From Schmidtea polychroa (lineage: Eukaryota): a DNA stretch of 64,000 nucleotides. The position numbers were made by a program, and so were the translations under genes. The DNA lies in the NCBI GenBank assembly GCA_044892525.1, contig CM097887.1, positions 41,292,001 through 41,356,000 of the forward strand, read 5' to 3'. Below the pieces are notes generated by a model that made no database searches, was not told where the DNA came from, and saw only the letters and a program-made list of their open reading frames with translations. Positions 15,554 to 40,485 of this stretch are shown here, one piece after another; the first letter of the stretch is position 1, and each line of letters starts with the position of its first letter.

Positions 15554-15580
15554 TTTTTTTTTTTTTTTTTTTTTTTTTTT
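15554..15580 (+). repeat. Poly(T)27 tract inside the element leader
   Basis: Uninterrupted T run. Confidence 0.9.
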
Positions 15581-24600: not shown

Positions 24601-27600
24601 CCAATCATCTAACAGCGATAGTGACGGCGATGATAACGGGAACGATAAATGTCTTTATCCAAACAGAAACCCAAACGAAAAACCAATGGAAACGGCACCA
24701 TATTGGGAAAAGGAAAAGACAAACACCTGGATCGCCAATGGAAGCTATATACCACCGGATATCGTGGGACCACAAGCAGCTTTGACCATGACACAAAATA
24801 TGTATCCGCAATTACCGAGTCAACCCGGTATGCTTTATATGCCAACACGACGTACCAAAAGTGTAGATCAAGCAGATGACGTAAGAACAATCGCAGCAAT
24901 GAGTCTACCTGGAGGTCCAGCAGTAACAGTTATGATTCAAATCAATGGTAAAGAAACCAATGCGATGATAGACACAGGAGCTAATGTATCAGCGATAGCG
25001 ATTAATCAAATTCCCAGTAAACACTGGAAGGATATCGAATCAACAACAATTCACATCATAGCATGTAGTAAAGAAACAGTGGACGTGGTCGGAAGATGGT
25101 GGACTACATTGAGATACCAGGACAACGAAATTGAAACGTATTTGGCAGTAATACCAAAACTTAGCGTACCATGCATAATCGGAACGGATTTGATGCCAGA
25201 ATTGTTAAAGGAAGTCGTAATTGACTTAACAACCATGTGTTTAAAAGACAAAACCGGTAGAATATGCAAAATGAATTCAGTCATCAGATGTCCAGAAAAA
25301 ATAATAGTACCAGCAAAATCACAGATGATTTGTCAGATAAAAGTGGATACGGGTATGGAAGGAGAAGTTATCTTTGAACCAAGCAAGTCATTTGAAAAGC
25401 GACGAGAATTACCACTCGCAAGAGAAATAATCACAATAAACCAAGAAGGAGTGATACCGCTCAACATCACGAATTTCGAAGAGGAAGACAAAATCATTTA
25501 TGAGAACGAAAAATTGGGAAGATTGACCCCAATGATGGACATAGAATTACCGAAAGTGACCAACGAGATGATCAAAGATGATGAATTATGGACAATAGAT
25601 AGTATGTTGTTGACGAATGACGAAAAGAAAAAATTGCACCGATTGTTGGTAGAATATAAAGATATATTCGCCATCTCAGATTTAGACTTGGGTACATGTG
25701 ATGTTACCTTACATGCAATACCACTCATAGACGAAACCCCAATTGCATTGAGACCATACAAGCTAGCAGAAATGCAGAAAGAAATAGCCGAAACAGAAGT
25801 ACAAAAGATGCTAGACGCAAAAGTAATCGAACCAAGTTGCTCACCCTGGCAATTCCCAGTGGTCATGGTGAAAAAGAAAGATGGCACCCAACGATTCTGT
25901 ATCGATTATCGGAAGTTAAACGCAGTGACCAAGAGAGATACCTACCCATTGCCGGACATCAATGAGATGTTATTGATGTTGCAAGGGGCAGCATATTTTA
26001 CTTCTTTAGATCTAAAAAGTGGATACTGGCAGATTAAAGTCAAAGATGAGGACAAAGAGAAAACAGCTTTCACGTTGGGACGAGATCTATATCAATTCAG
26101 GAAAATGCCATTTGGACTGACTAACGCACCAGCATCATTTCAACGGTGTATGAACTTTGTCACCCATGGAATCAAACAATGTATGGTATATATTGATGAT
26201 TTACTAATCTATTCAGCGACATTTGAACAACATCTAGAAGATATCCGAAACGTATTTATTAGATTAAGACAGTGGAAACTCAAACTCAAACCATCAAAAT
26301 GCGATTGGGCAAAGGAAAAAGTCACGTTTTTAGGACACATAGTGTCAGCTAAAGGAAAGGAGCCAGATCCAAGAAACATTGAGAAAATAAAAACATGTCC
26401 AGCACCGAAAACTGTCACCCAAGTTCAGGAATTTCTAGGATTATGCGGATACTATCGCAAATTTATCAAAAATTATGCAGGAATTGCAAAACCAATCCAG
26501 GAATTAGTAAAGAAGGACATTTCGTTCTTATGGGGGAAGGAACAACAAGAGGCGTTTGAAACGCTGAGAGACAAACTAATCGAAGCACCTATCCTCGTAC
26601 ACCCAGATTTTAAGAAGCCATTTCTATTGGCAACGGATGCAAGCGGGTACGCGGCAGGCGCGATTCTGGGACAATTGGACGATGAGGGAAAAGAGAGAGT
26701 AATCGGGTATTACAGTCGAACATTCAAAAAGCACGAAAAGAACTATTCGGTAACAGAACGAGAAGCATTGGCTATAATACAAGCTATCAAACACTTCCGA
26801 TATTTACTATGGGGACATGAGATATGCATAACCACAGACCATCAACCATTAGTGTGGTTAGGGCAACATAAAGAAGCGTCCAGTAGACTGATGAGATGGG
26901 CCATGCAATTGCAAGAATACTCCCCATTTATAAAATTCAAAGCGGGAAGAGCAAATGCCAACGCCGATTGTATGTCAAGATTTATTTTCCCAGATTTGGT
27001 GGATTCAGAAATGCAACGCATATGCTTAATAGTAGCGGAAGATTTGGATTTCTGTCAATTGCGAAAGGACCAACAAGAGGACGCGGAATTAAAACAAATT
27101 ATCGATTATATAAAAACCGGACAGACAGATGTATATGCGAAAGACCAAAAATTAAAAGAACATATGGATAAACACCGACACCGATATATTATAGAGAAAG
27201 ATTGGTTGCTGATAATGGATGGGGAAAAACGATTAATGTGTATACCGGAAAACCGACGAAAAGAGTTACTAACGCAATATCACGATGGGAGATTGGGAGG
27301 ACATATGTCATCGAAAAAGACGTTAGCAAGAATGAAACAGAAATATTTTTGGCCTACGTTAACGGAAGATGTAACCGAATGGGTAAAAAATTGTCTAACT
27401 TGTGCAACCAGGAAGAATACGGGATCGAAATGGAAAGCACCTTTAACGCCAATGCCAGTACCAATAGAACCAATGACAATGATATCCATGGACGTAGTTG
27501 GTCCACTACCAGAGTCAGATAAAGGAAACGTTTACATTCTGGTGATCACAGACTTTCTTACGAAATTCCCAGAAGCATTCGCGATGCCAGACCAAAAAGC

Positions 27601-30600
27601 TAAAACAATCGCAAAAATTTTGGTAGAAGAGATATGTTGCCGATATGGAACACCAAAACAAATCTTAACCGATCAGGGAACAAATTTTATGAGTGAGATA
27701 ATGAGCGAAGTAACAAATTACTTCAAAATAGCAAAACTAAGAACATCTCCATACCACCCTCAAACCAATGGGATGACGGAAAGATTTAATGGAACACTTA
27801 TACAAATGTTATCAAACTACGTTGACCGTCACCAACGAGATTGGGACGAATATATAAACCTATGTCTTATGGCGTACAGAATGTCGATTCACGCATCAAC
27901 GAAAATGAGCCCATTCAAATTAATGTACGGAAGAGAATGTAATATGCCAATGGACCTGGAATACCAACCACCGATATCGCAGTATATGGAGATCGATGAT
28001 TATGTTACGAAATTCAAGGAAAGAATGCAAGAAATTTGGGAAACTGCGGGATTAAATATCAAGTTCTACCAGGAAAGTTATAAAGATTTACACGATCGAA
28101 AGAAAAACGTGAAGCAACATACGTTCCAAACAGGTGATTGGGTAATGATAGAAACCCCGGAATTAATTCCAGGAACCACAAAAAAGTTACAACGCAACGG
28201 AAAAGGACCATATGAGATCTTATTCGTAGGCGAAACTAATGTAAGAGTGAAATTGGTAAATAACCCCTTTACCAGACCAATATACGTAAACGTGGCACGA
28301 TGCAAATCAATTCCAAAAACAGCCACTAGTCAACCAGAAGGCCGTACATTAACCACACGTTCGCAAACCTACCGAATGAACATGATGCAACAACTCGCAG
28401 AACCGATCACTGGACGATTAGGTATCCAACCATCAGAAGCGGAAAAGATTGTAAAAGAGGTAAAAATTAAAATACCTGGATGGGCGAAAGATCGATTAGA
28501 TTTCGAAATATTAGGAGGATTATTGACGATGATCGAGAACTATGCAAATAGAGAAAGGACACACCCATTATTGCGAGTAGTCAAAAGCCAATGGCCAATA
28601 TTATTTACAATAACAGATCATTACGGAGACACACCATTACACAAACTCATGAAAGTAGGTAACAACGAGCAAATACTAGAAACAATAGAAGCATTTCACG
28701 ACTGCAAGCGATCAACAGAACAAACAAACAACCAAGGTTACACACCATTAATGATAGCCGCAAACAGAGGCAAAACAAAAGACATTATAACCGCATTACT
28801 CGATACCGGATCGAAAATAACTACACAAGACCACGAGCGGAAAAACGCTCTACACCATGCTATCGAAGGGAGAAGTACCGAGGCGTTCACGTCATTGATG
28901 GAACTACTATCATATGAGGACAATCGGGAAGTCGGAAACATGTATGATGGATTGTTAACAGCGATCAAAGAAAAACTGACGACAATTACCGGAATATTAA
29001 TTACATGGAGAAATCCAATTCGAAACGATTATATGATCAACGTAAACGAAGCGTTCACGAGAGGAGAGAACACGCTGATGAGAGAAGCTATGAAAGGACA
29101 TCAGTTATTCGAAATCCCGAATCAATTACTAGAACGAGGGATAAAATTCACAAATCATAAAGACGAACAGTTAGCAAAAAAGCGAATCGACACATTCGAA
29201 AAATCCCTATTCCAATTTACTAACCAAGTACGAAATAAATATTGGGAAACGGTAAGTGTGTTATATATGATGGACACAATGAATAACATCCGCGAGAATT
29301 ACCTGGATATTATCCAAATACTTACAGCAGAGGAACGAATCAATAATCCAAACGGAAAGAAAACGAAAATAAGGTATGAGAAATCCAGGGAATCAAAGTC
29401 AACAACGAACCAAACGGTCACAAACAACGTCATCGAAACCAAATCAATGAGTATAGATCAAGAGGCAATAATACGCAAAGCAAAAGAAGTGTTCTTTGAG
29501 GAAATGCTAGAGCTGCCAGACGAAATAATATTGTCAAAAATAATAAAAGCCGTACACACATACGCAAGAGATCAAACCACGGATTTAGATATCGGGAAAA
29601 TCAAAACCTTCTTGCCTCGAGCATTTACGATGGTAACGAAGGATTCCAGAACACCCCTACAACAAGCAATACTAGCAGCGAAAGAAAATAGAGCAATAAC
29701 GATCGTGAGAATCCTTGGAGAGATGGGCGAGGAAACCAACACGAAAAATGAACAAGGTGAAACCGCCATGATGTATGCAGCTATAACGAAAATACACCCA
29801 AAAACACTCCACATCCTACATCAATCAGGATCGAAACTAGACGAAAAGTCCAATGAAGGAAATTCCACCTTGGACTGGGCAACCATACAGCCAAACTTAG
29901 AAATGATCAGATTTATTTGCAAAAATGCGACAAAAGAAGAAGTCGAAAATATGTGCAAAAACACATCTCAGTTTCAATGGAATGCGGTACGGAAAAATCT
30001 AGAAGCAATGAAATTATTATTAACCTGGAGAGTACCACAAAATAATAAATATGCGATAAATGTAAACGAATTCTACGAAAACGGAGAAAATGCGATGGTA
30101 AAGAATACCCTAACTAAGGGGGGGACACCTAAAATAATTTTAATAGTATTAAATAGAGAAGACCTAAAATTCACGCAAAATCAGAACGAGCAACAACGAA
30201 TTGGGAAACATCGTCGTATGCAATTGAGAGAGTTAGTTAAAGAATGGAATAGAAAGAGACATGCTGCAACGGGTAGAAAAGAGTTTGAATTCGAAGCAAA
30301 ATTAGCAAGAAACAGAGTGCTAACAGCATATCGCAGATTATTGAACGATATAAATGTCGAGGACGACATTTTAAACGACAGCGGGGGAGATAAACACGAT
30401 GACAATAACGGAAAAGGCCGAAAGGAGGATAAAGAGAAAAGAGAACAGGAGGAGGGTAAACCGGAAAACAAGGATTCGGATACGAAAAGAGAGGGAAACA
30501 GCCCGGGAACTAAGACCAAAGAGGAGGAAAAATCGAATAATGGAAAACAGAGGGTATGCCTACCTTTCACTAACAAAGAAATAGAGACAAATATGATATT

Positions 30601-31594
30601 AATGATAATTATGCTTACCATGATAGAGTTAGTAACAGCTCAGGGAGGGACGAGAACGATAAAAGAAACCAAAGAAGCGGAGAATCAAGATAGCAAAGAG
30701 GATGAACTAAAGCAAGAAAAGAAAAAGCAAGCACAAGAGCAGCAGTGGGATTTAAAGGAAGAATGGGACTTAAAGGAAAGGTGCATACTAGGAAGATGCA
30801 TGTCTAGAGCGTATCAGAAACTAGTACTGATAAATGAGGCCACAGAACCAATAACAGAAGTAAGAATACAAGAAGCATACCGAAATCGAGACGGGAAGAG
30901 AATAACGAACGTCAAAGGAAAAGAGGTACACCTAGGAAAAGGTGGTGAAGTAGTAATAACGCAGATCCAACCTAGAAAAGAGCACAAAGTCTGTATTTCA
31001 AGATTAGGACCAGGCGAGAGATGCCATCAATATGTGACGCAGCAGCAGCCGCCGAAAGAATACACGGTTTGTATCTGGAGGAATGAATCAAAAAGAGAAT
31101 GCCGACGATACCCGGGGAAAAGAGGAAAGAAAAGAAAAAACCACGACGAAAAGAACGAAGGAGGAAAGCACAAGAAAACTGGTGAGGAAGCTCAGGACAA
31201 CTATGTTTCGGAGGAAGAGATGGAAAAAATACAAAAGATGGCAAAGGAGGGTATGAACGAGGAAATAGCAAGAATACGGGAAATGATGAAAGGAAATGGC
31301 AAAAGAGGAAACGAGAAAAGTACAGAAGCGATATCAACATTAACAAACAAGGAAAAACCAGAGAGTATAAGCGTGAAGCAGATGATGTGGATCAGTGGGA
31401 TAATAATAACAGGGGCATTCCTAATCATAACGGGGGGAACAATAAAAATAATTAAGGATAAACGACATCGCGGAGAACTAGAGATGACTCGAATCAGAAA
31501 TTTCCAACATCGAGTGAAACGACCAAGTGATATCAAACAAGAACAGTGGGTGGAGGCCTGGAACGCTCAGCGCCCTCCAAACTCACGTATATAG
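17741..31594 (+). CDS. gag-env-pol: 4,617-aa Gag-Ubl-Bcl2-Env(G)-PR-RT-RH-IN-ANK-TM polyprotein
   Basis: Single frame, with no stop codon or frameshift. Motifs: DTG (24971), YIDD (26189), TDAS (26633), HHCC zinc finger and D-D35E (27491, 27671, 27779), GPY motif near 28205. Confidence 0.97.
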   Translation: MTNVVKTDEYKEKFRGEPFNGNANKLASFITNFEVYITVCGWTPEAISKRMPLFLCDSALEVYLEAKERDTKLEKWEDIKTFLKKTFGASKPINQALGELANRKQRANESITLYASELRRLAKKAMNGKLPEENLIGYFIEGLRREEVRASVGCQMCKTLEEAIDWATRCELHLPAQMNIMQEEGRIATAIAKADNGDNNNQEPKMNQFIPGAHQIFKPPQGRSNGNNGNRNNPNNENNFNNRRNMNDNKQCRTCGKPGHWDRDCYRNSNCNRCGRRGHTENVCQLRGCFDCGQPGHISRDCRERGQQQRPPQRNNNYIANPQRQSNPNEGKQMNVMQEISQMKQMMQQMMRPRQESAPQQTQNIRMMRSTENLNNYEVHQHVQEWQRLQAEEERIKQERNQQRQEQPLRINMMKLVKDMKSQYCYNYGKSPRVVPMTEPEKVKEITTEMKTENSTTILKGNQRIQKIFWKKIKDKIEKEHNKAKTETEDENNKSKEQTSQLNHQMLQESEPEETTIFERKKLKKVPRMRNLQINMMKRTKDVASSDEEEDYVSSLGGEILQLNEISEPPKGEIKEEEGESEITSESEDEDIEIKLRKGKEEAIKQVAEILPVVVRNQEFIDVIPFRRFVQKVMKLERNEKDLIPNEEKSIIKNYMEKMKQADTTRYVIKIGTSRGLERMWIKNTVTDELFDWIREHLGSSRKKEYLYQYQGEQIKPDMHLVDALIWPGETQILKLHKEKQPANLYDWAKDAKAEYDFNIKLKLEQIKQCTLRRNLDKLIKQIQEQVEDNWDLLITRRAPAMYELMSRLRDTEMLRMSDWRTINLIHKYGRLKETQPQRLEITIWLPNEEKRRIKMSNQSTVDDLVSKINQEITEKVRSESSDGMVDDVVMMYDKIILRAEDDTSLSEMGMWDNHQIIRIVPMDEFRTRDVTYQKEIRDRMKTLYQKSTEIIEIHQQWLKEKELQGKITKLNTRSCRRTPWERVWNAESKEWEIRKGTFVETDIGETESESEEEEEEPPEYEEEAREQTSDDESETDVTSESENEARHIHAMRKKEREYADMDGEEAAEAREREEKERYKQLGDILAMGAKNQRRQVVALANIILKTSENIHNLRGMAKAIEEYRQYNEWYPEQLEQIIRKWRNQEWAQDTQERYHIRIKYPDKSIEELEVHPTTKIRELKKKLAYETPFHLQLFGKSLDDNADVGITPMRLEETNVLTMAETLGKPLKRKSKIIKPTQGSLSTPSPNKAPSKSNETEEVEEIILEDSDDEPGERSPLLVRWPTGAEMWTNNQPSTSYQQPTKLNIKEIIDNTTETETDEQFQKQREPTKVTPESQTDKIIDEWNEWLRNNDSSLPRTDNERNPNYENTREAGTMMEKRAKGRPKKQGEKSEFKTKEQLKQEQGQVRLEKLDKIVWDLKEAQPTIERGEKWIRELLKDMLIITNPQLRRLWQRKVASTEARQLWHTISGIIPKLIKEKTKTTKTDWDETKRVIEQLTTNANDDEHHLVVITYLMYNLMGLAARKIPNKQFANHVEMTVSIIENTIEPHIIRAGGWKRLIQAPRKNEQERSMQVRLKKLLNELEWELPMKDPASRKASINSLMMTMMIWMLCTSGATGFTIYDCDNMIMRDKYSLRDIEECRQASPNKLDIVRTKVTYHVYQESDFIRTQARECVVSKKVLAYYCGQYSYSTLILPGLDKEIVSIQREDCKELFRTGALKMHNGVTIHGQTGMIKTESVYVAGKVKSSDGSCNGGTYTIRGEVISGVVVIESYTVELKEYEAQFDANNYQMKTNPACKATENVCRTGVSTIIYEANTQKCRLQLLKSALFNEVKGEIYENENDEDGNDRVRMRNGKPMPPSPREKRLSTQKTPTALITDDPDLGMRFIKEKETTKCDSIVYKTNYAGIYMSRQIIDRAVGKIATEDVKLYLYANNKMDFLFHRGQTTLQKVYYDLIQNDCSLNKEILKTKLAIAITHPDNTMPSLPLPDGHFGRMVGEVMYTYQCTKTYARMPEKSILPEKRCANELEIRYKGQNRFVQPVTRIMNPVGFYPNLFNCSNAYGPLYERPDGKWMMLPGKTISEEPKKFGLIELATELDFKPIDVSNGGMYSPEDLETARLNVLFPARRESILSNMVTITGGTNYQSGPNYELLLSPDHFQQATSNMMKAMWGRFLVFGQMMAGILGIILIIQIVRVILTQMLACFDIYKREKKVNWKMIVGFLPFLAKTMVLHGHSKDIHRIKRLIKILTKIKGTDEEVGRRFRKVMYDEATRRQLKKNKPKFLDRFRSQSSNSDSDGDDNGNDKCLYPNRNPNEKPMETAPYWEKEKTNTWIANGSYIPPDIVGPQAALTMTQNMYPQLPSQPGMLYMPTRRTKSVDQADDVRTIAAMSLPGGPAVTVMIQINGKETNAMIDTGANVSAIAINQIPSKHWKDIESTTIHIIACSKETVDVVGRWWTTLRYQDNEIETYLAVIPKLSVPCIIGTDLMPELLKEVVIDLTTMCLKDKTGRICKMNSVIRCPEKIIVPAKSQMICQIKVDTGMEGEVIFEPSKSFEKRRELPLAREIITINQEGVIPLNITNFEEEDKIIYENEKLGRLTPMMDIELPKVTNEMIKDDELWTIDSMLLTNDEKKKLHRLLVEYKDIFAISDLDLGTCDVTLHAIPLIDETPIALRPYKLAEMQKEIAETEVQKMLDAKVIEPSCSPWQFPVVMVKKKDGTQRFCIDYRKLNAVTKRDTYPLPDINEMLLMLQGAAYFTSLDLKSGYWQIKVKDEDKEKTAFTLGRDLYQFRKMPFGLTNAPASFQRCMNFVTHGIKQCMVYIDDLLIYSATFEQHLEDIRNVFIRLRQWKLKLKPSKCDWAKEKVTFLGHIVSAKGKEPDPRNIEKIKTCPAPKTVTQVQEFLGLCGYYRKFIKNYAGIAKPIQELVKKDISFLWGKEQQEAFETLRDKLIEAPILVHPDFKKPFLLATDASGYAAGAILGQLDDEGKERVIGYYSRTFKKHEKNYSVTEREALAIIQAIKHFRYLLWGHEICITTDHQPLVWLGQHKEASSRLMRWAMQLQEYSPFIKFKAGRANANADCMSRFIFPDLVDSEMQRICLIVAEDLDFCQLRKDQQEDAELKQIIDYIKTGQTDVYAKDQKLKEHMDKHRHRYIIEKDWLLIMDGEKRLMCIPENRRKELLTQYHDGRLGGHMSSKKTLARMKQKYFWPTLTEDVTEWVKNCLTCATRKNTGSKWKAPLTPMPVPIEPMTMISMDVVGPLPESDKGNVYILVITDFLTKFPEAFAMPDQKAKTIAKILVEEICCRYGTPKQILTDQGTNFMSEIMSEVTNYFKIAKLRTSPYHPQTNGMTERFNGTLIQMLSNYVDRHQRDWDEYINLCLMAYRMSIHASTKMSPFKLMYGRECNMPMDLEYQPPISQYMEIDDYVTKFKERMQEIWETAGLNIKFYQESYKDLHDRKKNVKQHTFQTGDWVMIETPELIPGTTKKLQRNGKGPYEILFVGETNVRVKLVNNPFTRPIYVNVARCKSIPKTATSQPEGRTLTTRSQTYRMNMMQQLAEPITGRLGIQPSEAEKIVKEVKIKIPGWAKDRLDFEILGGLLTMIENYANRERTHPLLRVVKSQWPILFTITDHYGDTPLHKLMKVGNNEQILETIEAFHDCKRSTEQTNNQGYTPLMIAANRGKTKDIITALLDTGSKITTQDHERKNALHHAIEGRSTEAFTSLMELLSYEDNREVGNMYDGLLTAIKEKLTTITGILITWRNPIRNDYMINVNEAFTRGENTLMREAMKGHQLFEIPNQLLERGIKFTNHKDEQLAKKRIDTFEKSLFQFTNQVRNKYWETVSVLYMMDTMNNIRENYLDIIQILTAEERINNPNGKKTKIRYEKSRESKSTTNQTVTNNVIETKSMSIDQEAIIRKAKEVFFEEMLELPDEIILSKIIKAVHTYARDQTTDLDIGKIKTFLPRAFTMVTKDSRTPLQQAILAAKENRAITIVRILGEMGEETNTKNEQGETAMMYAAITKIHPKTLHILHQSGSKLDEKSNEGNSTLDWATIQPNLEMIRFICKNATKEEVENMCKNTSQFQWNAVRKNLEAMKLLLTWRVPQNNKYAINVNEFYENGENAMVKNTLTKGGTPKIILIVLNREDLKFTQNQNEQQRIGKHRRMQLRELVKEWNRKRHAATGRKEFEFEAKLARNRVLTAYRRLLNDINVEDDILNDSGGDKHDDNNGKGRKEDKEKREQEEGKPENKDSDTKREGNSPGTKTKEEEKSNNGKQRVCLPFTNKEIETNMILMIIMLTMIELVTAQGGTRTIKETKEAENQDSKEDELKQEKKKQAQEQQWDLKEEWDLKERCILGRCMSRAYQKLVLINEATEPITEVRIQEAYRNRDGKRITNVKGKEVHLGKGGEVVITQIQPRKEHKVCISRLGPGERCHQYVTQQQPPKEYTVCIWRNESKRECRRYPGKRGKKRKNHDEKNEGGKHKKTGEEAQDNYVSEEEMEKIQKMAKEGMNEEIARIREMMKGNGKRGNEKSTEAISTLTNKEKPESISVKQMMWISGIIITGAFLIITGGTIKIIKDKRHRGELEMTRIRNFQHRVKRPSDIKQEQWVEAWNAQRPPNSRI
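19733..21400 (+). other. Up to three ubiquitin-like domains (19733-19951, 20255-20506, 21203-21400)
   Basis: The third, YHIRIKYPDKSIEELEVHPTTKIRELKKKL...LQLFGKSLDD, follows the ubiquitin pattern. The first two are weaker beta-grasp-like matches. Confidence 0.6.
21960..22420 (+). other. Bcl-2-like helical domain
   Basis: BH2-like IEPHIIRAGGWKRLIQ; degenerate BH1 position (DEHHLVVITYLMYNL); helical amphipathic sequence throughout. Confidence 0.65.
22520..24430 (+). other. env: Chuvirus-like viral fusion glycoprotein with internal signal peptide and TM anchor
   Basis: Signal SINSLMMTMMIWMLCTSGATG|FTIYDC. Conserved motifs YDC..SL..C, C....YYCGQYSYS, DGSCNG, GEVMYTYQC, FVQPVTRI and GGMYS. REKR furin-type site at 23324-23335; TM at 24242-24347. 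Confidence 0.85.
24905..28320 (+). other. pol: Pol: retropepsin, linker, RT, RNase H, integrase
   Basis: AMIDTGANVS; PWQFPVVMVKKKDG..RFCIDYRKLN; YIDD; LATDAS..EREALA..TDH..ADCMSR; H..GH..C..C; MDVVGPLP, TDQG, GMTERFN; GKGPY. All catalytic residues are present. Confidence 0.97.
28613..30180 (+). other. Two ankyrin-repeat modules duplicated with a 340-aa period
   Basis: GDTPLH/GYTPLMIAA/KNALHHA and RTPLQQA/GETAMMYAA/NSTLDWA. Both TPL (28631 vs 29651) and TWR (29006 vs 30026) anchors are offset by exactly 1,020 nt. Confidence 0.85.
30593..31453 (+). other. C-terminal signal peptide + small Cys-containing ectodomain + TM (type I membrane module)
   Basis: MILMIIMLTMIELVTA|Q; FN3-like strands ITQIQPRKEHKVCI and PPKEYTVCIW; TM MMWISGIIITGAFLIITGGTI followed by KIIKDKR. 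Confidence 0.6.
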
Positions 31595-31754
31595 AAAGGA
31601 ATATGACTGTATATAATTGTAAAAAGTAAGTATATCTTATGTATATAACAGTACTATATCTTTATATAAGCGCGGTATCAATATTATACAATAACGGGAA
31701 TCATAAAATAAAATTAAATTTACATAAGAGCTGAAAAGTGTATATAAATTAGGA

Positions 31755-32114
31755 ATGGATCAAGGAAATAACGAAATGAACCACAATACAGTAACTGAAG
31801 AATTATGGAAGCAACAATGTGCCGTATTAGCACAATTAGTGTCCAATTTGCAAGAACAAGGACTGACGATGCACAGAAACCTGATCGAGAGTATGAACAG
31901 AGGATTTAGTTATTTGAAGATAATTGAAGACCAGAGGTTAAAAATCGAACAAATGCAAAGAGAGATAGAGAGGATAACCCAATATAGCCGTCGACAGGAA
32001 ATTGAAATAGACAGAATGATGGAGGAAGCAGAACAGACGGAAATAGAAGACTGGTCGGAATGGCTAATGAATAGAGAGGAGAGCGGACACGAAGCCGACT
32101 CTTCCGAACCCTAA
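31755..32114 (+). CDS. 119-aa coiled-coil accessory protein
   Basis: Same A-rich codon style as the polyprotein; heptad-like E/Q/R-rich sequence. Confidence 0.7.
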   Translation: MDQGNNEMNHNTVTEELWKQQCAVLAQLVSNLQEQGLTMHRNLIESMNRGFSYLKIIEDQRLKIEQMQREIERITQYSRRQEIEIDRMMEEAEQTEIEDWSEWLMNREESGHEADSSEP

Positions 32115-32199
32115 ACCAAACCTAGCTCAAAATGTAAATAATTGTAAATAAAATATCGAACCTGTATCGATAAGAACTATTTGTACATATAATTATAGA

Positions 32200-33588
32200 A
32201 TGGATAAACGACAAAGAGAAGAGTTCAGAGAGATTGTCGAGCAAGTCCGAAAATCTACAACGATCAGAATACACAAACATGTTATGTGCGGAATATGTGA
32301 AAAGTTGTTAAAGGAACCTCACCAAACGCAATGTGGATGCAGAGTATGTAAAGAATGTATCAGTGAAGCAATAAAGAATAGACCACAGAAGTGCCCGGTG
32401 TGTAAAGAGACACTAATATCGAGTTTAGAAGACACTAACGAGGATAAAGCCGCAGTGAAAGACATGTTAAACACCAACCTGGGATGCAAAAATGCCCCAT
32501 GCGAATGGAAAGGAGTAATATGGAAGGTAGTACAACATATGGGAGAATGTATGTACAGAATTGGCCAGTGTGAAAGGTGCCATAAAACCATTCGAGCAAG
32601 CGAAGAAAAAGAGCATCAAAGGCAGTGTGAAGAGAGATTGGAAAGATGTGAACACTGTGGAGAAATAGATACGTGGATAAATCTCACCCTCAAACATCAC
32701 AATGTCCAAGAGGAGAGAGTATGTGCGGAGTTCAGTGGGGAATGCCCAAACGGATGTAACCAAGGGGAAATAATGAAGGTGGCACAGCATCTAAGGGAAT
32801 GCGAAAAGAAAAGAATGACATGTGTACTAGGTAGATGGGGTTGTCAGAAATTACTACACCGAGGTGAGTTACCACATCATTTAGTAGAAAATGCTTCAAC
32901 TCACGCAGAAATGTGGTCGACTGCGTTACAAGAAAGCGAAGAGAAAGTAAAACAAATGGAGATAGAGATAACATCGTTGAAAGTGTTAGTCAAAGAACTA
33001 CTAGAAGAAAGGGAAGCGTTCGAAGAAGCCCGAGCAAACATAAAGATGCAAATAAACCGAACAGAAATTAGTAATAATCAGGCCAAGGAGCTACATCAGA
33101 AAATACGGGAAATAAATCTAAATGAGATAACCCCAACAGCACCCTACATATGGAAAATAACGGGAGTAAAAGAAAGAATACGAAAAGCAAAAACCGGAGA
33201 AGAGACAAGAATAACAAGTCCTACATTCCATTCTTGGAAAAATGGGTACAAAATGAAAATGAAGGTATATCCCAACGGGGACGGAACCGGATTGGATACG
33301 CACTTTTCGATTTTCTTTCTGTTATGTAAAGGAGAATACGACGAAATATTAGAATGGCCGTTCCAGGCAAAAATCGATATTACTCTGATGAACAACCAAA
33401 GTATACATGAGCAAAGCTTCAAAACAACGGGGAATCAAATAGCTTACCAGAGGCCCCTCAACGAAGAAGGATCAGCAACAGGAGCACCCACGTTCATCTC
33501 ACAACAAAGAGTGGAAGATATGGCGAGAAATGATACCATATATATCAAGATGACCGTGAGGAAAGAGGAGAAGGGTAGAACGGAATAA
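32200..33588 (+). CDS. TRAF: Full-length intronless TRAF homolog (RING, TRAF zinc fingers, coiled coil, MATH)
   Basis: CGIC...CGCRVC..C...CPVC; repeated C..C...H...C fingers; MATH motifs YIWKI, GYKMKMKVYPNGDGTGLDTHFSIFF, GEYDEILEWPF. Confidence 0.93.
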   Translation: MDKRQREEFREIVEQVRKSTTIRIHKHVMCGICEKLLKEPHQTQCGCRVCKECISEAIKNRPQKCPVCKETLISSLEDTNEDKAAVKDMLNTNLGCKNAPCEWKGVIWKVVQHMGECMYRIGQCERCHKTIRASEEKEHQRQCEERLERCEHCGEIDTWINLTLKHHNVQEERVCAEFSGECPNGCNQGEIMKVAQHLRECEKKRMTCVLGRWGCQKLLHRGELPHHLVENASTHAEMWSTALQESEEKVKQMEIEITSLKVLVKELLEEREAFEEARANIKMQINRTEISNNQAKELHQKIREINLNEITPTAPYIWKITGVKERIRKAKTGEETRITSPTFHSWKNGYKMKMKVYPNGDGTGLDTHFSIFFLLCKGEYDEILEWPFQAKIDITLMNNQSIHEQSFKTTGNQIAYQRPLNEEGSATGAPTFISQQRVEDMARNDTIYIKMTVRKEEKGRTE

Positions 33589-33726
33589 CCAATCGAATAA
33601 TGTTGTATATAATAATCTGTATATATCGGTGTATATAACCAATAAAATATTATATAATAATAGTATGAAAACCCTAAATACGAAAACCCAAAAATGATGC
33701 GAAAATTTCCCAAGAAACAGTAAATA

Positions 33727-34836
33727 ATGAATAAATTCCTTTTCATAATAAAAAGATTAATCGATGTCTATGATTTAGAGATGACACAAGAGAAAATAAC
33801 CGAAACTGCGATAGCCCCAACCAATGTCAACAAGACACAAATTCCCCGAGAACATAATAAAAAATGGAACAAAGTAATGTTCCAACTAACTAATCTCACC
33901 CGAAATCACATCGAAGAAACTAGAGAAGATGAGAATAGTCAATACCAATGGTTAATACACAACTTAAGAGCGGAAGCAGAAGCATGCAAAAGAGCATCAA
34001 AATGGGCGTCACTAGAAAATACCCGCCAAGAAGCACACAGCCACTACTTAAAGCAGCTAGTGCAGGAAGCGAGAAAAAGACTTACCGATGAGAACACCAA
34101 GCGCGAAGCGGAAAAACAAATAGAAGACAGGAAAATGATGCACTTAGTGGCAGAAGCGAGAAAATGGAAAAGACAAAACAGAGAAATGAAAAAAGAGATG
34201 AAAGAATTGCCCATGAGACTCGGATATGAAAGCGAACAAGGTAAATGGGAGGAGAATTTAATAATAAAGGAAGAATTGAAAAGGTTGAGAAAAGTCGCCG
34301 CCCGAAGCCAAACCTGGCAAACAAAGGCTATGGAGTTTGAGCGACATTTGGCAATGAAGTGCGACATAAGAGAGCACGAGAATGCCGCAATGGAAGAGAT
34401 GATAACCCAACAAGCGGGACGGGTTGTGGAATTAGTAAATCAGGTAGAAGAGATGAAAAGAGACCTTAATGGATTACAAGGATCGCTGGAACAAAGAAAC
34501 ATGGTCCTAGCGGGAAAAAACAGAAAATTAGAAAACGAAAGGAAAATGTACACCGAAAATATTAAAAACTTAGAAATAGAAATTGAAAAATGGAAGGGCG
34601 ACGAGAAAATCAAGGCCCTAGACAAACAGATAGAGGCGAAAGATGAAGAGACAAGGTATCTCACCTATCTGCTCGACGAGGAATTGAATATCACTCGAGC
34701 TCTAAGAGACGAAGTTAGTGAATTGAGAGCTCAAATTCCCCAATATTACCTACCATACGACCCTATTGCGATACAGTTACATTCCGCGGTCGATAGTGAT
34801 GAAGGTTATGTAGGCCAGGAGGAAACCTTCGTATGA
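33727..34836 (+). CDS. 369-aa long coiled-coil protein (possible start 33781)
   Basis: Open frame, E/K/R/L-rich heptads, element-like codon usage. Confidence 0.75.
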   Translation: MNKFLFIIKRLIDVYDLEMTQEKITETAIAPTNVNKTQIPREHNKKWNKVMFQLTNLTRNHIEETREDENSQYQWLIHNLRAEAEACKRASKWASLENTRQEAHSHYLKQLVQEARKRLTDENTKREAEKQIEDRKMMHLVAEARKWKRQNREMKKEMKELPMRLGYESEQGKWEENLIIKEELKRLRKVAARSQTWQTKAMEFERHLAMKCDIREHENAAMEEMITQQAGRVVELVNQVEEMKRDLNGLQGSLEQRNMVLAGKNRKLENERKMYTENIKNLEIEIEKWKGDEKIKALDKQIEAKDEETRYLTYLLDEELNITRALRDEVSELRAQIPQYYLPYDPIAIQLHSAVDSDEGYVGQEETFV

Positions 34837-34950
34837 GGGTGGATGAAAAGATGAAAAACTAAAAACCGGGACGTATATCCCAAACAAAAAAATTAAAGTA
34901 TTGTAAAAGTATTCAAGGGACTATAACCCAAACTATTAAATTTTATATCA

Positions 34951-35703
34951 ATGTATACGTATAAGTCGCACTATAGCGCACCATTAACTGTACATATTAT
35001 AGATATGAAAATCGAGGAAATGATAGAAATTATGAGCGACGTAGAAGAGGGAGAGATTGAGGCAGAAACAACAGAAACACAAACGCTAAAGGCCGAGTTA
35101 CGGGAAGAGAAATACGAAAACGGGAGATTAATAAACAAATACCTGGAGGACCGGAAAATGATAAAGGTGTTAAAGAAAGAGTGCGAAGCGTTGGGGGAAA
35201 TAAAAAGAGAAACGGAAGAGGAAAATGAATGGCTACACGAACAAAGGAAGCGAGGGAAAAACTGGGAAAAGATAGCGGAAGAGCTATGGAAAGAGAGGGC
35301 AAGCTTCAAAGCAAAGGAGGTAATCCAAGACTACTGGAAAACTGAGGCGAAGGAGCGCCAAACAGCTATAAATAAATTAAAACGACAACTAGAAGAAAAC
35401 CAACGGGAAAGTAAAGAAATGAGGAAGTGGGTTCGCAAATATAGAGAAATAGAAAGAAAACATCAACAACAAAATTACCTGCAAGAAAACGAACAAGATC
35501 TCCTACAAATCGAGCTAAAAAGAAACCTTGAAAAGAAAAGGGAAGAAATTAGACGCTTGGAAAAAGAAATTAGACATCTAAAGAGAGAAGCCCGTGAAAA
35601 AGACCGACAATTGGAAATGCTGCCCGAGTTAAGACACAGGGTAATTAAAGCAGAGTCCACCTTGATGAGAATCGGTGAAAATAATCCAAATCAGAACCAT
35701 TAA
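34951..35703 (+). CDS. 250-aa coiled-coil protein (likely start 35005)
   Basis: Open frame with E/K/R-rich heptads. The first 18 codons resemble spacer sequence. Confidence 0.75.
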   Translation: MYTYKSHYSAPLTVHIIDMKIEEMIEIMSDVEEGEIEAETTETQTLKAELREEKYENGRLINKYLEDRKMIKVLKKECEALGEIKRETEEENEWLHEQRKRGKNWEKIAEELWKERASFKAKEVIQDYWKTEAKERQTAINKLKRQLEENQRESKEMRKWVRKYREIERKHQQQNYLQENEQDLLQIELKRNLEKKREEIRRLEKEIRHLKREAREKDRQLEMLPELRHRVIKAESTLMRIGENNPNQNH

Positions 35704-35743
35704 ATTAAGGGTCATTAAAACCAATTGTAAATAAACATAATGA

Positions 35744-36412
35744 ATGTATAATAGTATCATGCGAGGCGAGATGATGATAACAATGATGGTATTGATGATT
35801 CTGATGGAGAACAAACAATTAAACGCCCAACCGAAAATCGTACGAGATTACCGCAATCAAAATCAAGAACCTAAACAAGAATCCGGCAAATGCACATACC
35901 CTATGACCGTAAAAACCCATATCATCCAAACCATTCAATCAACCCGATCCCACATCAACAACATCCAAACAATGTGTAAAAAGAACCCCATTTGTAAAAT
36001 GATAAACAAACAAATCTTCGAACAAAGCCAACAGATCGACCAGTTGGAACAACAAATGCAACAAGAGGATTTTGAAAATCTTGTAGAAAAGCCAAAAACA
36101 CCTCCCGAGATCAATGACACCCATTATCTCATATATGTGGTGATCGCAGAGACCCTCCTCCTATGTCTACCAATATTCATGAAAATTTACGAAATTCGAA
36201 ATAGATGTAGAGTCTCGACATCAATAAGAGTAACCTCGAACCAAAATCCTCAAGAAGTGCCCCTGACAAATCTTAACCCAACCCCATTCCGACCTCGAAC
36301 CCCGAGTAATCAACCAATCCAGCCGAAATCTAATAGTCAGACCTATCTCAACATCAATACCCAAACCAACCAACAGCCGCCAGCAGAAGCATCAATGGTT
36401 AACAGTTCATAA
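35744..36412 (+). CDS. 222-aa predicted type I membrane protein (signal peptide, Cys/coiled-coil ectodomain, TM, Pro/Asn-rich tail)
   Basis: MMITMMVLMILM...LNA|Q; TM YLIYVVIAETLLLCLPIFM followed by KIYEIRNR. Confidence 0.7.
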   Translation: MYNSIMRGEMMITMMVLMILMENKQLNAQPKIVRDYRNQNQEPKQESGKCTYPMTVKTHIIQTIQSTRSHINNIQTMCKKNPICKMINKQIFEQSQQIDQLEQQMQQEDFENLVEKPKTPPEINDTHYLIYVVIAETLLLCLPIFMKIYEIRNRCRVSTSIRVTSNQNPQEVPLTNLNPTPFRPRTPSNQPIQPKSNSQTYLNINTQTNQQPPAEASMVNSS

Positions 36413-36638
36413 ACTCTAACTCAAACATTTGTGTTATTATATGTGGAAACTTTTATTGTATGTACAAACTATCACCTTAAGTGATACTTGCTTGATCTTG
36501 CTTTGACCTAGATCTTACAATAAAAATTTTATCATTGTTGTATAATTGTCGTGTTCGTGTTATATTTTTTTTTTGAATGAATGAATTAAGTTAATTATGC
36601 AATTGCGGGACGCAATTTTGATGGGTCCCCGAGTGATT

Positions 36639-39600
36639 TGTTGGGCTGAGTCGAAAATTTAATCGTTGAAAAATAGGAAAGTAGGGAAGTAGAACATTAA
36701 GAAAAATAATAATAAAATAAATAAAATCAGAAATAAAATAGAATAAGATATAAGGAAAATAATAATTAAGACATAAGAATTAAAACAAAAAATAAAATTA
36801 AGAAAAGATTAAAATAGAACAAGTTGACAAATAAATAAAGAGGAATTCAAGAAATAATAAGGAAATTAAGGAAATAAATAGAAAAACATATTAAAAATAA
36901 AGAAAATAAGGAAAAAACAACCTAAAAACAAGAAAATTATATTAAATTAATAGAAATAAGCGGTACTCAACTCTGATTGGTCCGCACAAATAAGAATTTG
37001 ATATATATACAACTACCAAAAACATTAAATTTACTGTTAACCCCGAGCATTTCATAGGTAAGAAAAATGTTTACTGTTTTTACTGTTAACCCCGAGCATT
37101 TCATAGGATCGACACTACTAGCCAAGCAACCGTCATTCAGAAAACTCCACAACTATTCAAAACCAGTTCAGAGACCGAAATACCATTCATCACAATAATC
37201 GACATCCAACGGACCACCATTAGAACTATTTGGAACGAACAACATTGAATTTTGACTCAGCCTAACAATAGTAAGGGGTATTTCATTTGTTTATAGATTT
37301 ATTTAAGTATTTGCAAAGCTAATAATAATGTTAAATATTAACGATTAAACATTTTAGTTAACTCTCTTCATTTGATTCTCCATTTTAATAACTTTAACGT
37401 ATTGATGGAATTTGTATTATTTAAGTATTTCCGAATCAATAAAATATTTTAATCCAGATGTCCGTATTTTATTTGAATTAAAGATTTTATGAATTTTCAT
37501 TTAACGAGTAACGTGGAGTTGAGATACTCCATGTCATGGTATGAGGTGCCTTCGGGAGCTCAGCCGGTGGACATGGAGTATTTCAATCGCGCAGCTAGAT
37601 TGGGCCGAAATGTGAAGGCTTCTTCACGGGTCCTATCGCTGAAGATGCGACTAAATTATCACAATGGGGTATGGATAAAAAATAACCGGTAGACAATGAT
37701 TTCACAAAGATAGTCATACGAATGAAGGGATTTTCAAGGATTTGCACAGTGATTGAGGGCGTCGCATTCTTCTTTCGTCAAGTCGTTTTCGTAAATCTTA
37801 CCCCTATTGAAAAATGAGATCCAGACAACGATTTAGTGAACTTCGTCAAAAATAACGACATCTCATAGTACGCTTCATCTGGAAACATGGTTTTATCAAA
37901 TTAATTGCGACAACGTCTATTTGCCGGACTCAGTAGAACTAAATTCGTATGAAATTCCATTATCATAGACCCAATGTCATCTAACCTGTCCAGATTGTAT
38001 GTCAAGTTACGTAAGTATTCTAAAAACTTTGACTAACTCGAAACTATAAAATGCGAGATTCTACGAAAACCCTCTCTAATATTATAATCAGAAAGTTTTT
38101 ATAGACTTAGTTATTTCAAAAATTATAAACAGGTAAAATATCACCAAATTTAATTAATAACATTTATTTCTACAATAAGAGCCAGGTCATCACTGTATAT
38201 ATCCAAATTATTGAACCTGAGAGAAAAGGACAGGTTTCATCGAGACGGCATTACATCTGAATAGGAAAATCCGAGTAGAATGACGAGAGTAGTAATTTGC
38301 TCCAGTATTTGGTAGAATTATTCCCTCGACGATCACAGAAAAGATCCAATAAATTTCCAAACGATGGTGATCATTCACACAAGTTGATAAGGGTAAAATT
38401 CCGCGATGAGAACTGGCGGTAGCATAAATCATAACTCAAATAGATCACTGTGCAGAGAAAATCATACGACAGCAGGATCGATAAAATCACCGTGAAAATG
38501 GCATACACCAAGTGAGTGAGATAAGATAGTAGCCATACGCGAATCCATGTGGTGAGAGCACAAAATATCAGACTAGCATACATAATAGTCGCGACACGTG
38601 ACATTCACAATAGGTCGATAATGTAATCAACTAGTCGACAGTAGTATCCGTAAATTTGGACATGTGTTATGACCGATGAGATATCCCATGAGGGTGTTAA
38701 AGTAATGGCTGATGTAAACTCATCACATATTTTCAGACCAATGGTAGACAACATAGATAATCACATTCACTACCGAATTAAAAGTGCACTTCCAATAACA
38801 AATTTCGAATCAAAAAATATGTTGAGAATAGCGATAGTAATTTGTTTGTAATAAATTAAAATAGATAACATATAGCAAGGTTTGGTCGCATACTATAATG
38901 TCCCTCTACTAAAGCATTATTATATTGTTTCACCAATATTATATTTACCCCCTATTAATTATTACGCCCCTCATGTATACGGTTAGATCAATAGAGAGTC
39001 AAAGTTAATAACATGCGTCAAACCGAGGGCATTTGGTTAAATAAACTGTTTTAACAACTAAGATCCGTAGTAAAACCGGATGGTAGAATAAGTTTTCCTT
39101 CTGTTCGACGGTCAAGTATCCACGAATGGACGCGGGTCGTATCTAATTTATTCTAAAATCGTATGTTCTCCATTTCATTAGTATTATTTATAGCAAGCAT
39201 GCTACCAGCCACTAAATCGGCATTACGGCCGTGCTTCTCGTGCGCGGATAAAAATACGGTGATAAAGGACCTACAGACTCAGATTGGACGTTACAAGAGG
39301 AAGATAGACGAGCTGGAAGGGACATGGTTTAGTCCCGCTCGGATGAAAGAGATCCAAAAGAAGCTCGATCGTAGCGAGCATTGCCGGGACGCGCTAATAT
39401 CTGAGAGCCGTGCCCAAAGAAGTCTAATCAGAGAACAATCCGAGGCACTGCATAAGGTTTACGTGCAGGCGGCTACAACCCGAAAAATCGTGCAGATTCC
39501 CATCCGAGAGGCCGATGACATCTTTCCGCCTCATCACAACCTTTCCTCGAATCCATCTCCACCGTTCAAGAGACCGTGCCGAGACTGCGTCGAAACCGAA

Positions 39601-40485
39601 TGGTCCCCCAAGCGTCCAGATGTTGTCATCACGGGTACCAGTAAGCCCCCCACTGCTAGTCCATCTGTATCAGTCACCCTTCTGCAAGTGGCATCTTCAA
39701 GCAAACCCAAGCGCAAACAACTCTCTCGTGCAGAGCGCAAGAAGAGACAGCGCGAGCGCGCTACTGCAAAGCCAAACATCCCATCAATAGAGGACTCAAC
39801 TAACGGTGGCAACTCTCACGTGTCCATCGACCTAACAACGGGACCCTCAGCGCGAATCATATCAGCCGCTGGCGTAAGGTGGGAAGAGAACGCTTCCGAG
39901 TTTTTCAACCTCGACGAATTATTCGCCGACACTGAATGGGAGAAACAATAAAACCCCAGTGGCGGTCAGGATGAGGAACAAGGATCCGATCTATGTTGAT
40001 TATGATGTTTTCTCTTCTTTCGACAAACATTAGTAAAGTGTACAGCTGAATCCTTGTGTCATAACGTTGAAATTAATAAATCTTGTTGTCTTACACGTTT
40101 TCGTTCATGAATAATTAGACTTTAATTAAGTGGGTTGAGTAGAGAACCCGCAAGATCTAGTGAGAATTTCCCAATTTGCATTCAGCGAATCCTGATAGGT
40201 GGTTGTGTAAGGAAATGGACGTAAGCCCTTCTATCGGCAGTCGTGAATGGGAAGTCGAGGCCTCAGCAAGGAGTAGTTTTAAGGCAGAAGCTCACCTGCT
40301 TGCTGGCGTCTCGCCTGCATAGTGCAGTACCAACGTGAAGTGATTCACGGGCACTATGTTGGAAGAAAGTTATGTGGGGTTTCACTCCAGGTTGACAAAT
40401 CGGTGGCACCTTTTATTCGAGATGGACAATCAACCCTTAGACCCGCCAACATGGTAGAATGGTCAGCCGAGGTGTGACCCCAACA
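36639..40485 (+). repeat. 3' LTR (3,847 bp)
   Basis: Copy of 10685-14531, followed by the AAAT TSD. Confidence 0.97.
39163..39951 (+). CDS. LTR-encoded ORF, 3' copy
   Basis: Translation identical to 13209-13997. Confidence 0.7.
   Translation: MFSISLVLFIASMLPATKSALRPCFSCADKNTVIKDLQTQIGRYKRKIDELEGTWFSPARMKEIQKKLDRSEHCRDALISESRAQRSLIREQSEALHKVYVQAATTRKIVQIPIREADDIFPPHHNLSSNPSPPFKRPCRDCVETEWSPKRPDVVITGTSKPPTASPSVSVTLLQVASSSKPKRKQLSRAERKKRQRERATAKPNIPSIEDSTNGGNSHVSIDLTTGPSARIISAAGVRWEENASEFFNLDELFADTEWEKQ

Follow-up and report, generated by a model that had tools for sequence, protein, structure and literature searches.

A dense array of Pumilio-consensus motifs in the intercistronic spacers of a Burro-type retroelement from Schmidtea polychroa

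What a single octamer might do in the short spacers behind the polyprotein of a giant retroelement is the question raised by this locus. The DNA analysed was a window of 64,000 nucleotides from Schmidtea polychroa (GCA_044892525.1, contig CM097887.1, positions 41,292,001 to 41,356,000), in which the initial annotation had marked eleven matches to TGTAHATA between open reading frames. All eleven were recovered at their coordinates on the + strand, three in each of the first three spacers, as had been described, a single one in spacer 4 and another in spacer 5. Spacer 1 (31595..31754) contains TGTATATA at 31608, 31640 and 31739, spacer 2 (32115..32199) contains TGTAAATA at 32133 and 32143 and TGTACATA at 32182, spacer 3 (33589..33726) contains TGTATATA at 33604, 33618 and 33630, spacer 4 (34837..35004) contains TGTACATA at 34989 and spacer 5 (35704..35743) contains TGTAAATA at 35726. 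Site 34989 is a spacer site only if ORF D starts at the ATG at 35005 and not at the in-frame ATG at 34951; with spacers drawn to the first ATG there are 10 sites in 537 nt.

The spacers belong to a Burro-type giant Ty3/gypsy LTR element (10685..40485, + strand) of 29,801 bp with TG...CA ends and a 4-bp target duplication, AAAT, in flanks of 27–28% GC, a composition that agrees with a planarian host. Two identical LTRs of 3,847 bp (10685..14531 and 36639..40485) enclose 22,107 bp, in line with the size of this class (~30 kb or more, internal region >20 kb). The total length is slightly below the '>30 kb' quoted for S. mediterranea. The 5' LTR carries a donor-like AG/GTAAG (GT at 11104) and GTAAGG (11317), a 262-aa ORF (13209–13997) and an AATAAA at 14121 with a T-richer stretch downstream. 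The leader ORF (14874..15359; 161 aa, C3HC4 RING) has a CAG 2 nt upstream of its ATG and, past its stop, its own AATAAA at 15502 with a T-rich downstream element and no perfect motif. One giant gag-env-pol ORF (17741..31594; 13,854 nt, 4,617 aa) encodes Gag with three CCHC knuckles, a Monjiviricetes-type fusion glycoprotein, protease, RT, RNase H, integrase and ankyrin repeats, which agrees with the Burro-type order of Gag, 2–3 CCHC and in-frame env 5' of PR, then RT-RH-IN. A Pfam search of the polyprotein, whole and in parts, gave no match to BIR or BCL2-like modules.

Five accessory ORFs follow: ORF A (31755..32114; 119 aa, no Pfam match), ORF B (32200..33588; 462 aa, TRAF-like with RING ... 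MATH), ORF C (33727..34836; 369 aa, coiled-coil-like, weakly matching residues 399–497 of protein P0002), ORF D (35005..35703; coiled-coil-like, 250 aa in its longest reading from 34951, matching P0002 residues 581–745) and ORF E (35744..36412; 222 aa, judged by eye to be hydrophobic at its N-terminus and again in a late stretch). Accessory ORFs with ankyrin and MATH/TRAF modules are likewise Burro-type. The terminal UTR (36413..36638) holds AATAAA at 36519, then a GT/T-rich element (56% T), and no perfect motif on the + strand. The internal stop codons of the element have 0.8–4.9 kb downstream. Burro/GYPSM1, as described in the accessible text of PMC6431247, is alike in its ~30 kb, multi-kb LTRs, giant ORF1 with Gag and three CCHC, mononegaviral-type env in frame 5' of the protease, PR-RT-RH-IN, ankyrin repeats, MATH/TRAF, coiled-coil ORFs and leader tandem repeat. 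ORF1 is 4,617 aa here as opposed to 4,873 and 5,140 aa there and, unlike in that description, the TRAF-like ORF is separate and downstream and BIR and BCL2 are without Pfam match. That text says nothing about accessory-ORF expression or spacer motifs.

Where the rough expectation had been well under one match in ~650 bp, calculation for 670 nt of spacer gave 0.19 matches under a mononucleotide and 0.52 under a dinucleotide model. Shuffling of the spacers, the check proposed with the motif, reached a maximum of 4 in 5,000 shuffles. A tighter, 591-nt spacer definition resulted in an expectation of 0.52 and a maximum of 4 in 3,000, while order-2 and order-3 Markov models gave 1.1 and 1.6 with a maximum of 7 in 4,000. 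Allowing for the choice of motif, TGTA.ATA was the top gapped 8-mer, and any gapped 8-mer reached at most 9 copies in 1,500 shuffles as against 11. The spacers carried no motif on their − strand (a strand ratio of 11:0, P = 0.04 once composition is taken into account), nor was there one in the 4,148 nt of accessory coding sequence or on the + strand of the polyprotein ORF, and among 328 AT-rich 655-nt windows of the flanks 317 had no motif, 9 had one and 2 had two.

The spacers are TA-rich, sites in spacers 2 and 3 show tandem spacings of 10–14 nt, and the TRAF-like and RING genes are plausibly of host origin; the motifs could on these grounds be without current function, arising by TA-rich drift or local slippage or as remnants of host 3' UTRs that came along with the captured genes. 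We consider this very improbable. Merging sites ≤15 nt apart leaves eight clusters, and not even 8 sites were reached in any of 3,000 shuffles. Near-miss sites are depleted, the ratio of perfect to one-mismatch sites being 11:4 in the spacers, 7:212 in the flanks and 1:24 elsewhere in the element. Three variants are spread over five unrelated spacers, and the upstream sites sit in the polyprotein's own spacer. Spacer duplication was rejected as a source, since none of the ten motif-masked spacer pairs exceeded the 95th percentile of shuffles.

When the remaining seven positions agreed with the motif, positions 3, 4, 6 and 8 were fixed in 11/11, positions 1 and 7 in 11/12 and position 2 in 11/13, while position 5 was T in six, A in three and C in two sites and the base 5' of the motif was mixed. 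The equation of the octamer with the Pumilio consensus UGUAHAUA (accessible text of PMC4995099) stood in that this one consensus, with seven fixed positions and H at position 5, covers every site; Pumilio binding itself we infer from it. The sites share with Pumilio/Nanos response elements, as far as the available texts of PMC4995099 and PMC11182014 describe them, an exact UGUAHAUA in which position 5 is never G, an AU-rich untranslated context and clusters of up to three. They lie in predicted untranslated sense-strand sequence, site 34989 subject to the start of ORF D. Unlike those elements they are intercistronic in a mobile element and not in one 3' UTR, and four of them stand 8–10 nt 5' of an AUG. 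An all-A/U upstream triplet, the Nanos preference in these texts, is present at 5 of the 11 sites only and a general Nanos extension was rejected. Nor was any special accessibility or structure seen: predicted accessibility was low, at 0.08 compared to 0.22 for other spacer 8-mers, which speaks against the Pumilio reading, though it was no lower than in motif-fixed shuffles (0.063 vs 0.071 ± 0.027). Taken from sequence, the motifs are probably selected Pumilio response elements on sense RNAs (probability roughly 0.6), which suggests that the element uses this host stem-cell and germline regulator for tuning its own RNAs. Pumilio is reportedly essential for planarian stem cells, going by the title of a 2005 report by Salvetti.

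The position of the sites relative to the ORFs bears on what they may do. Sites 31739, 32182, 34989 and 35726 are 8, 10, 8 and 10 nt upstream of an ATG, so that 4 of 5 spacers show a spacing of 8–10 nt (P = 0.002 with any 3-nt window allowed, the start codons of ORFs D and E having been picked after data inspection). The first three of these also precede a TAG (31750–52, 32196–98 and 35000–02), with site-to-AG distances of 6, 9 and 6 nt. In spacer 3, a one-mismatch site at 33719 adjoins the ATG at 33727 and no perfect site is near it.

A TATA box is STATAWAW ~30 nt upstream of a start site. In the promoter reading offered by the initial annotation, extended here to one promoter per accessory gene, TGTATATA(A) would act as TATA boxes and TGTAAATA as Forkhead sites. 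All six T-variants match STATAWAW and all three A-variants RTAAAYA, the spacers are AT-rich, and a similar TATATA is present in the LTR near 11050 (a − strand match). The TATA part nevertheless fits 6 of the 11 sites and none in spacers 2, 4 and 5, two factors would be required with both C-variants left over, the first base is T in 11/12, and sites 8–10 nt 5' of an ATG would start transcription within the coding sequence. Neither TATAWAW (9 vs 6.1, P = 0.17) nor CCAAT (3 vs 1.6, P = 0.19) is enriched. The planarian Initiator TTTGTTTAAATA (Table S3 in the accessible material of PMC10558129) was tried and rejected, its TGTTT core occurring in none of the five spacers nor in the terminal UTR. DNA-level promoters are thus decidedly unlikely.

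Eight sites lie 13–45 nt 3' of a stop codon, occupying 4 of the 5 internal spacers, whereas none of the 3 terminal stops is followed by one; they include three sites 15–41 nt 3' of the stop in spacer 3 and site 35726, 22 nt 3' of its stop. PTBP1 gives stop-proximal protection in Rous sarcoma virus, and Ty assembly is linked to the P-body. By analogy, Pumilio could be bound in a mainly non-repressive role, shielding stops from nonsense-mediated decay or gathering the RNA in granules as an assembly site or NORAD-like decoy. We consider this quite unlikely: the stop-proximal clustering does not reach significance in spacers of this length (P = 0.08), the 150 nt following the ORF C stop are free of sites, no paper surveyed by title and abstract opening pointed to protection from decay by Pumilio, and a decoy would require high RNA abundance. 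Per the available text of PMC4947167, NORAD has 17 sites with 0.38 expected, an extreme density like the 11 with 0.5 (0.52) here, and is degraded no more than targets with few sites; a human gene with 18 sites has them mostly inside transposable elements. Unlike NORAD, this region is coding and polycistronic, with five long ORFs, and its spacers are unrelated outside the motif and are not repeated units.

Returning to repression by Pumilio, the load on each RNA depends on where the RNAs end. The T fraction 16–65 nt 3' of A(A/T)TAAA was 0.56 at 36519, 0.66 at 15502 and 0.42 at 14121 compared to 0.18–0.34 at all ten spacer hexamers, and these three AATAAA probably belong to genuine poly(A) sites. 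Because of this contrast, the five 3' ORFs would apparently all depend on AATAAA 36519, none having a poly(A) site to itself. CFIm requires only UGUA, which as an upstream element stands 5' of AAUAAA with a U/GU-rich element downstream. The suggestion that the motifs serve CFIm was weakened, as AATAAA occurs 6 times in the spacers with 4.9 expected and no U-rich element follows, for example behind AATAAA 31707 in spacer 1.

With a common 3' end, we tentatively propose, at somewhat under even odds, a set of 3'-coterminal nested mRNAs in which Pumilio represses upstream cistrons by a graded load that is greatest on genomic RNA. The 5' ends of the downstream ORFs would most likely arise by splicing onto a YAG close to the AUG, either in cis from the LTR donors or by spliced-leader trans-splicing. 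Each spacer would be 3' UTR for the ORFs upstream, and its sites would be removed from the mRNA of the following ORF, giving predicted loads of 11 on gag-env-pol RNA, 8 on ORF A, 5 on the TRAF-like ORF, 2 on C, 1 on D and 0 on E. Recruitment of CCR4-NOT by Pumilio would then repress in proportion to load, damping the replication proteins most, preventing the expression of internal cistrons from long RNAs and setting the ratio of accessory proteins in Pumilio-expressing cells. In Drosophila, repression strengthens as 3' UTR sites are added and clustered, up to a total of three (accessible text of PMC11182014); here three sites fall inside 60 nt in spacer 2 and likewise in spacer 3. A YAG stands 1–2 nt 5' of the ATGs at 31755, 32200, 35005 and 14874, compared to 34 of the 604 ATGs in the element. 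However, the proposed acceptors rank only in the top 8–20% of 737 YAGs by T content, with other acceptor-like sites of the element stronger. A donor-like GTAAGT is found at 31626 in spacer 1. Upstream AUGs are present in all five spacers, which is evidence against ribosome scanning through them. Against the nested set, the 8–10 nt spacing is unpredicted by plain 3' UTR repression, and a parasite recruiting a repressor requires some benefit.

Perfect sites occur in 5/5 internal spacers and in 0/3 terminal UTRs (those of AATAAA 36519, 15502 and 14121), which indicates that the motif marks cistron junctions. The idea that the accessory genes are regulated in a coordinated way is too simple in that the UTR common to all presumed mRNAs, where one cluster would reach them all, has no perfect site; the load would be graded or local, and a local junction role is favoured. 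The motif could be a processing signal of an operon-like block that couples 3'-end cleavage to (trans-)splicing at the next YAG. It would be bound by a factor recognising UGUA/UAYAUA, whether CFIm25, an Hrp1-like protein or Pumilio acting in the nucleus. The constant spacing to ATG and AG fits such a signal, as do one-strand spacers of 40–170 nt, similar to operon spacing with its Macrostomum peak near 100 bp (PMC8629364, in part), and same-strand ORFs with a YAG near the start codon are shared with the flatworm and nematode SL operons of PMC8629364 and PMC12582326. S. mediterranea has SL trans-splicing, with flatworm retrotransposon loci bearing leader traces (accessible text of PMC12582326). 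However, a requirement for UGUA leaves the fixed AUA unexplained, spacer 3 lacks a site close to the following ATG, and, unlike in SL operons, no U-rich element lies 3' of the unenriched spacer AATAAA. The putative acceptors are TAG in AT-rich tracts, unlike the (T/C)TNCAG of Macrostomum in the available part of PMC8629364. Planarians possess CFIm25, yet according to the accessible text of PMC5068929 UGUA is not enriched at their poly(A) sites; the 11 of its 25 supplementary files that were searched held no match. We therefore regard a junction-processing role as unlikely.

Element type and motif are known, and their arrangement is without precedent found in the openly accessible literature, which yielded no report of Pumilio sites in Burro or LTR-element spacers. 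Natural viral sites were sought in a foamy-virus paper (PMC3192847) and rejected, the sites in its available text being engineered. The neoblast connection raised in the initial annotation is hypothetical, BURRO1 RNA being described as intestine-enriched and de-repressed in differentiated cells (accessible text of PMC8532177). The spacers offer exact testable positions, namely eleven candidate Pumilio sites, three candidate acceptors and one presumed common poly(A) site. Should Pumilio bind them, a transposon would have evolved dense sites for a host repressor, and a second RNA pathway beside piRNAs would be tied to transposon control, or a natural viral-type counterpart of NORAD would exist. 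More speculatively, and in our judgment improbably, this env-bearing retroelement would carry a Pumilio code at every cistron junction, by which Pumilio, or a factor with its specificity, would mark the points at which the long RNA is resolved into mRNAs of one gene each, with the RNA also titrating Pumilio like NORAD. Burro elements are abundant in planarian genomes and are de-repressed by piwi RNAi, and titration is conceivable because many copies exist; if true, loss of silencing would let the element interfere in trans with mRNAs of stem cells and the germline.

Relatives of the element were searched for with its individual parts. Protein searches returned single matches for ORF B (P0001) and ORF D (P0002) and none for ORF C among 3,455 candidates, while pol gave best matches of 39–51% identity. 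A search of sequencing runs listed no RNA run; four runs from one study, under two organism labels, contained 0.64–0.69 of the sequence words searched, and one of them may be the source of the window. None of 102 metagenomic candidates for ORF B was confirmed, and the integrase-ankyrin part found no relative in the viral contigs searched. An accessory block like that of the element was not seen at the three metagenomic loci recovered with pol. These are ordinary-sized gypsy fragments of 40–44% identity carrying 0, 0 and 3 scattered + strand motifs.

All 11 TGTAHATA matches listed in the initial annotation (31608–35726) were recovered, and all lie within an LTR element of 29,801 bp (10685–40485, + strand). 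Its 5′ and 3′ LTRs (10685–14531 and 36639–40485, +; 3,847 bp each) are identical and have TG...CA ends, and AAAT flanks both outer ends of the element, which indicates a young insertion. A single ORF (17741–31594, +) encodes a 4,617-aa polyprotein with Gag, three CCHC knuckles, a Monjiviricetes-type fusion glycoprotein, protease, RT, RNase H, integrase and ankyrin repeats. Planarian Burro elements share this layout according to an excerpt of PMC6431247; excerpted text of PMC11410931 mentions Burro only as giant repeats. Flank GC was 27–28%, in keeping with a planarian host. Five ORFs follow 3′ of the polyprotein on the same strand, namely ORF A (119 aa), an ORF for a TRAF-like protein with RING and MATH (32200–33588, +; 462 aa), the coiled-coil-like ORFs C and D (33727–35703, +) and lastly ORF E (222 aa). 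Planarians are reported to have many TRAF-like genes, and a full TRAF-like gene in a multicopy element could add to their number. A single database protein of 759 aa, P0002, was matched by both ORF C and ORF D, in the order in which they lie here (24% over 99 aa and 31% over 194 aa). It may be a relative in which they are fused or a gene model that joins them, and the order suggests a relative in which spacer 4, between C and D, is absent or spliced out.

The spacers between successive ORFs (spacers 1–5) were evaluated for motif enrichment. A chance expectation of well under one match had been estimated; dinucleotide shuffles of the 670 nt of spacer gave 0.52, with a maximum of 4 in 5,000 shuffles against 11 observed. 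Spacer-trained Markov models of order 2 and order 3 gave 1.1 and 1.6 motifs (maximum 7 in 4,000). TGTA.ATA ranked first among gapped 8-mers in the spacers, and in a look-elsewhere control of 1,500 shuffles no 8-mer, whatever its sequence, exceeded 9 occurrences. Merging sites within 15 nt left eight clusters, and 8 sites were reached by none of 3,000 shuffles. The motif was absent from the opposite strand of the spacers, from the + strand of the polyprotein ORF and from the accessory coding sequence (4,148 nt), site 34989 lying outside coding sequence only when 35005 is taken as the start of ORF D; the 11:0 strand bias had P = 0.04 after composition. Perfect to one-mismatch sites stood at 11:4 in the spacers, 7:212 in the flank (68,398 nt, both strands) and 1:24 in the remainder of the element, and the spacer motifs look selected for the exact 8-mer. 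None of 10 motif-masked spacer pairs aligned above shuffled levels, so duplication of a single cassette does not account for the spacers. The sites were predicted to be poorly accessible, though no differently from motif-fixed shuffles. Literature searches listed no earlier description of sites like these, either for Burro or for the spacers of other LTR elements. The element is of a known kind, and the motifs in it are real, sharp and non-random; a lack of any function is judged very improbable.

Seven motif positions were nearly invariant, position 5 was T, A or C (6, 3 and 2 sites) and the preceding base was mixed. This pattern agrees with the Pumilio consensus UGUAHAUA (PMC4995099, in excerpt), which favours the proposed Pumilio reading. 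TATA, Forkhead, Initiator and CFIm labels fit worse. For the suggested TATA boxes, STATAWAW fits 6 of the 11 sites and none in spacers 2, 4 and 5; neither TATAWAW nor CCAAT was enriched in the spacers, and internal promoters are quite unlikely. A Forkhead pattern fits 3 sites. The planarian Initiator was rejected, its core TGTTT (PMC10558129, Table S3, in excerpt) being absent from the spacers. The CFIm/AAUAAA proposal fared worse than Pumilio, AATAAA being not enriched in the spacers (6 versus 4.9 expected); planarians have CFIm25 and, in excerpted text, UGUA is not enriched at their poly(A) sites (PMC5068929).

The motifs are best read as putatively functional Pumilio elements at cistron junctions. 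The preferred mechanism, at a probability of roughly 0.45, is a nested set of 3′-coterminal mRNAs with graded Pumilio repression; its transcript structure, Pumilio binding and repression are inferred. What was observed directly is the motif with its precision, strand and placement, together with the difference between poly(A) signals. AATAAA behind ORF E (36519, +) is followed by a T-rich stretch (56% T), as are those behind the leader RING ORF (15502, +; 66% T) and the LTR ORF (14121, +; 42% T). T content was 18–34% behind 10 of 10 spacer hexamers and 32–34% behind two other terminal hexamers (13993, 15464). The T-rich stretch at 36519, set against the spacer values, points to a common end of the five 3′ ORFs, probably behind this signal. 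Splicing onto YAG would free the mRNA of each ORF from the sites ahead of that ORF, leaving 11 sites behind the stop of the polyprotein, 8 for A, 5 for the TRAF-like ORF, 2 for C, 1 for D and 0 for E, and Pumilio would repress each mRNA in grades following its site number. Retroviral analogies exist for shielding and granule roles. That the sites protect the RNA from decay, or act in granules or as a decoy in the manner of NORAD (PMC4947167, in excerpt), is unlikely. For graded repression, an excerpt on Drosophila describes repression via CCR4-NOT as predicted by how many sites a 3′ UTR holds, up to three, and how closely they cluster (PMC11182014). BURRO1 RNA is reported in the intestine and in differentiated cells upon smedwi-2 RNAi (PMC8532177, in excerpt), so that cells other than neoblasts may be the relevant ones; planarian germ cells are marked by nanos (PMC9286257, in excerpt).

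Eight sites lie 13–45 nt behind a stop (P = 0.08, not significant given the short spacers) and four precede an ATG by 8–10 nt (matched in 14 of 200,000 random placements; P = 0.002 allowing any 3-nt window), the starts of ORFs D and E having been picked after inspection; site 35726 belongs to both groups. TAG stands between motif and ATG, 1–2 nt ahead of the latter, in 3 of the 4 ATG-proximal sites, and the leader RING ORF has CAG in the equivalent place; the background was 34 of 604 ATGs. The candidate acceptors rank only in the top 8–20% of 737 YAGs by T content, which counts against splicing there. Upstream AUGs in every spacer make plain scanning unlikely. A perfect donor-like GTAAGT, one of four in 26 kb, lies between two spacer 1 motifs (31626–31631, +) and could splice 31626–31752 or skip the accessory ORFs. 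Perfect motifs occurred in 5 of 5 internal spacers versus 0 of 3 terminal UTRs. A junction-processing role would suit both the common terminal UTR without motif and the fixed motif-to-AUG spacing; it is somewhat unlikely, and stays viable because flatworms have SL trans-splicing and operons with ~100-bp spacing (PMC8629364, PMC12582326, both in excerpt).

The LTR has CCAAT-like and TATATA elements at ~11020–11057 and, downstream of 11057, donor- or acceptor-like sites at 11104, ~11153, 11317, 11342 and ~11505 (11104 and 11317 donor-like, +); it seems to hold spliced exons (11040–11510, +). At 11332, TTTGTTTA resembles the published planarian Initiator directly before an AG, and could here be an acceptor tract. 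Each LTR carries a GC-richer 262-aa ORF (13209–13997 and 39163–39951, +) with a TAG 5 nt before inner ATG 13245, its own poly(A)-like signal and no Pfam match; genomic RNA would have to read through this signal and that at 15502. Behind the 5′ LTR lies a primer-binding-site-like sequence (14532–14560, +) resembling, presumably, the 3′ end of tRNA-Pro. Despite the identical LTRs and signs of recent activity, the sequence just before the 3′ LTR contains no polypurine tract (36590–36638, +; about half purines), which leaves plus-strand priming unexplained. The leader contains a tandem array of 74-bp units (15950–16435, +), and tandem repeats are likewise drawn for Burro (PMC6431247, in excerpt).

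A second, broken gypsy element (55229–59646, −) shows 30–34% identity to the polyprotein over most matches, no motif cluster, and env-like sequence upstream of RT, so that the predicted env-before-pol order recurs. Flank ORFs at 6387–7655 (+, 422 aa) and 42371–43075 (−, 234 aa) had no Pfam match. A further env-like fragment lies at 52822–53165 (+), and an 84-bp inverted repeat (93%) at 43314–43486.
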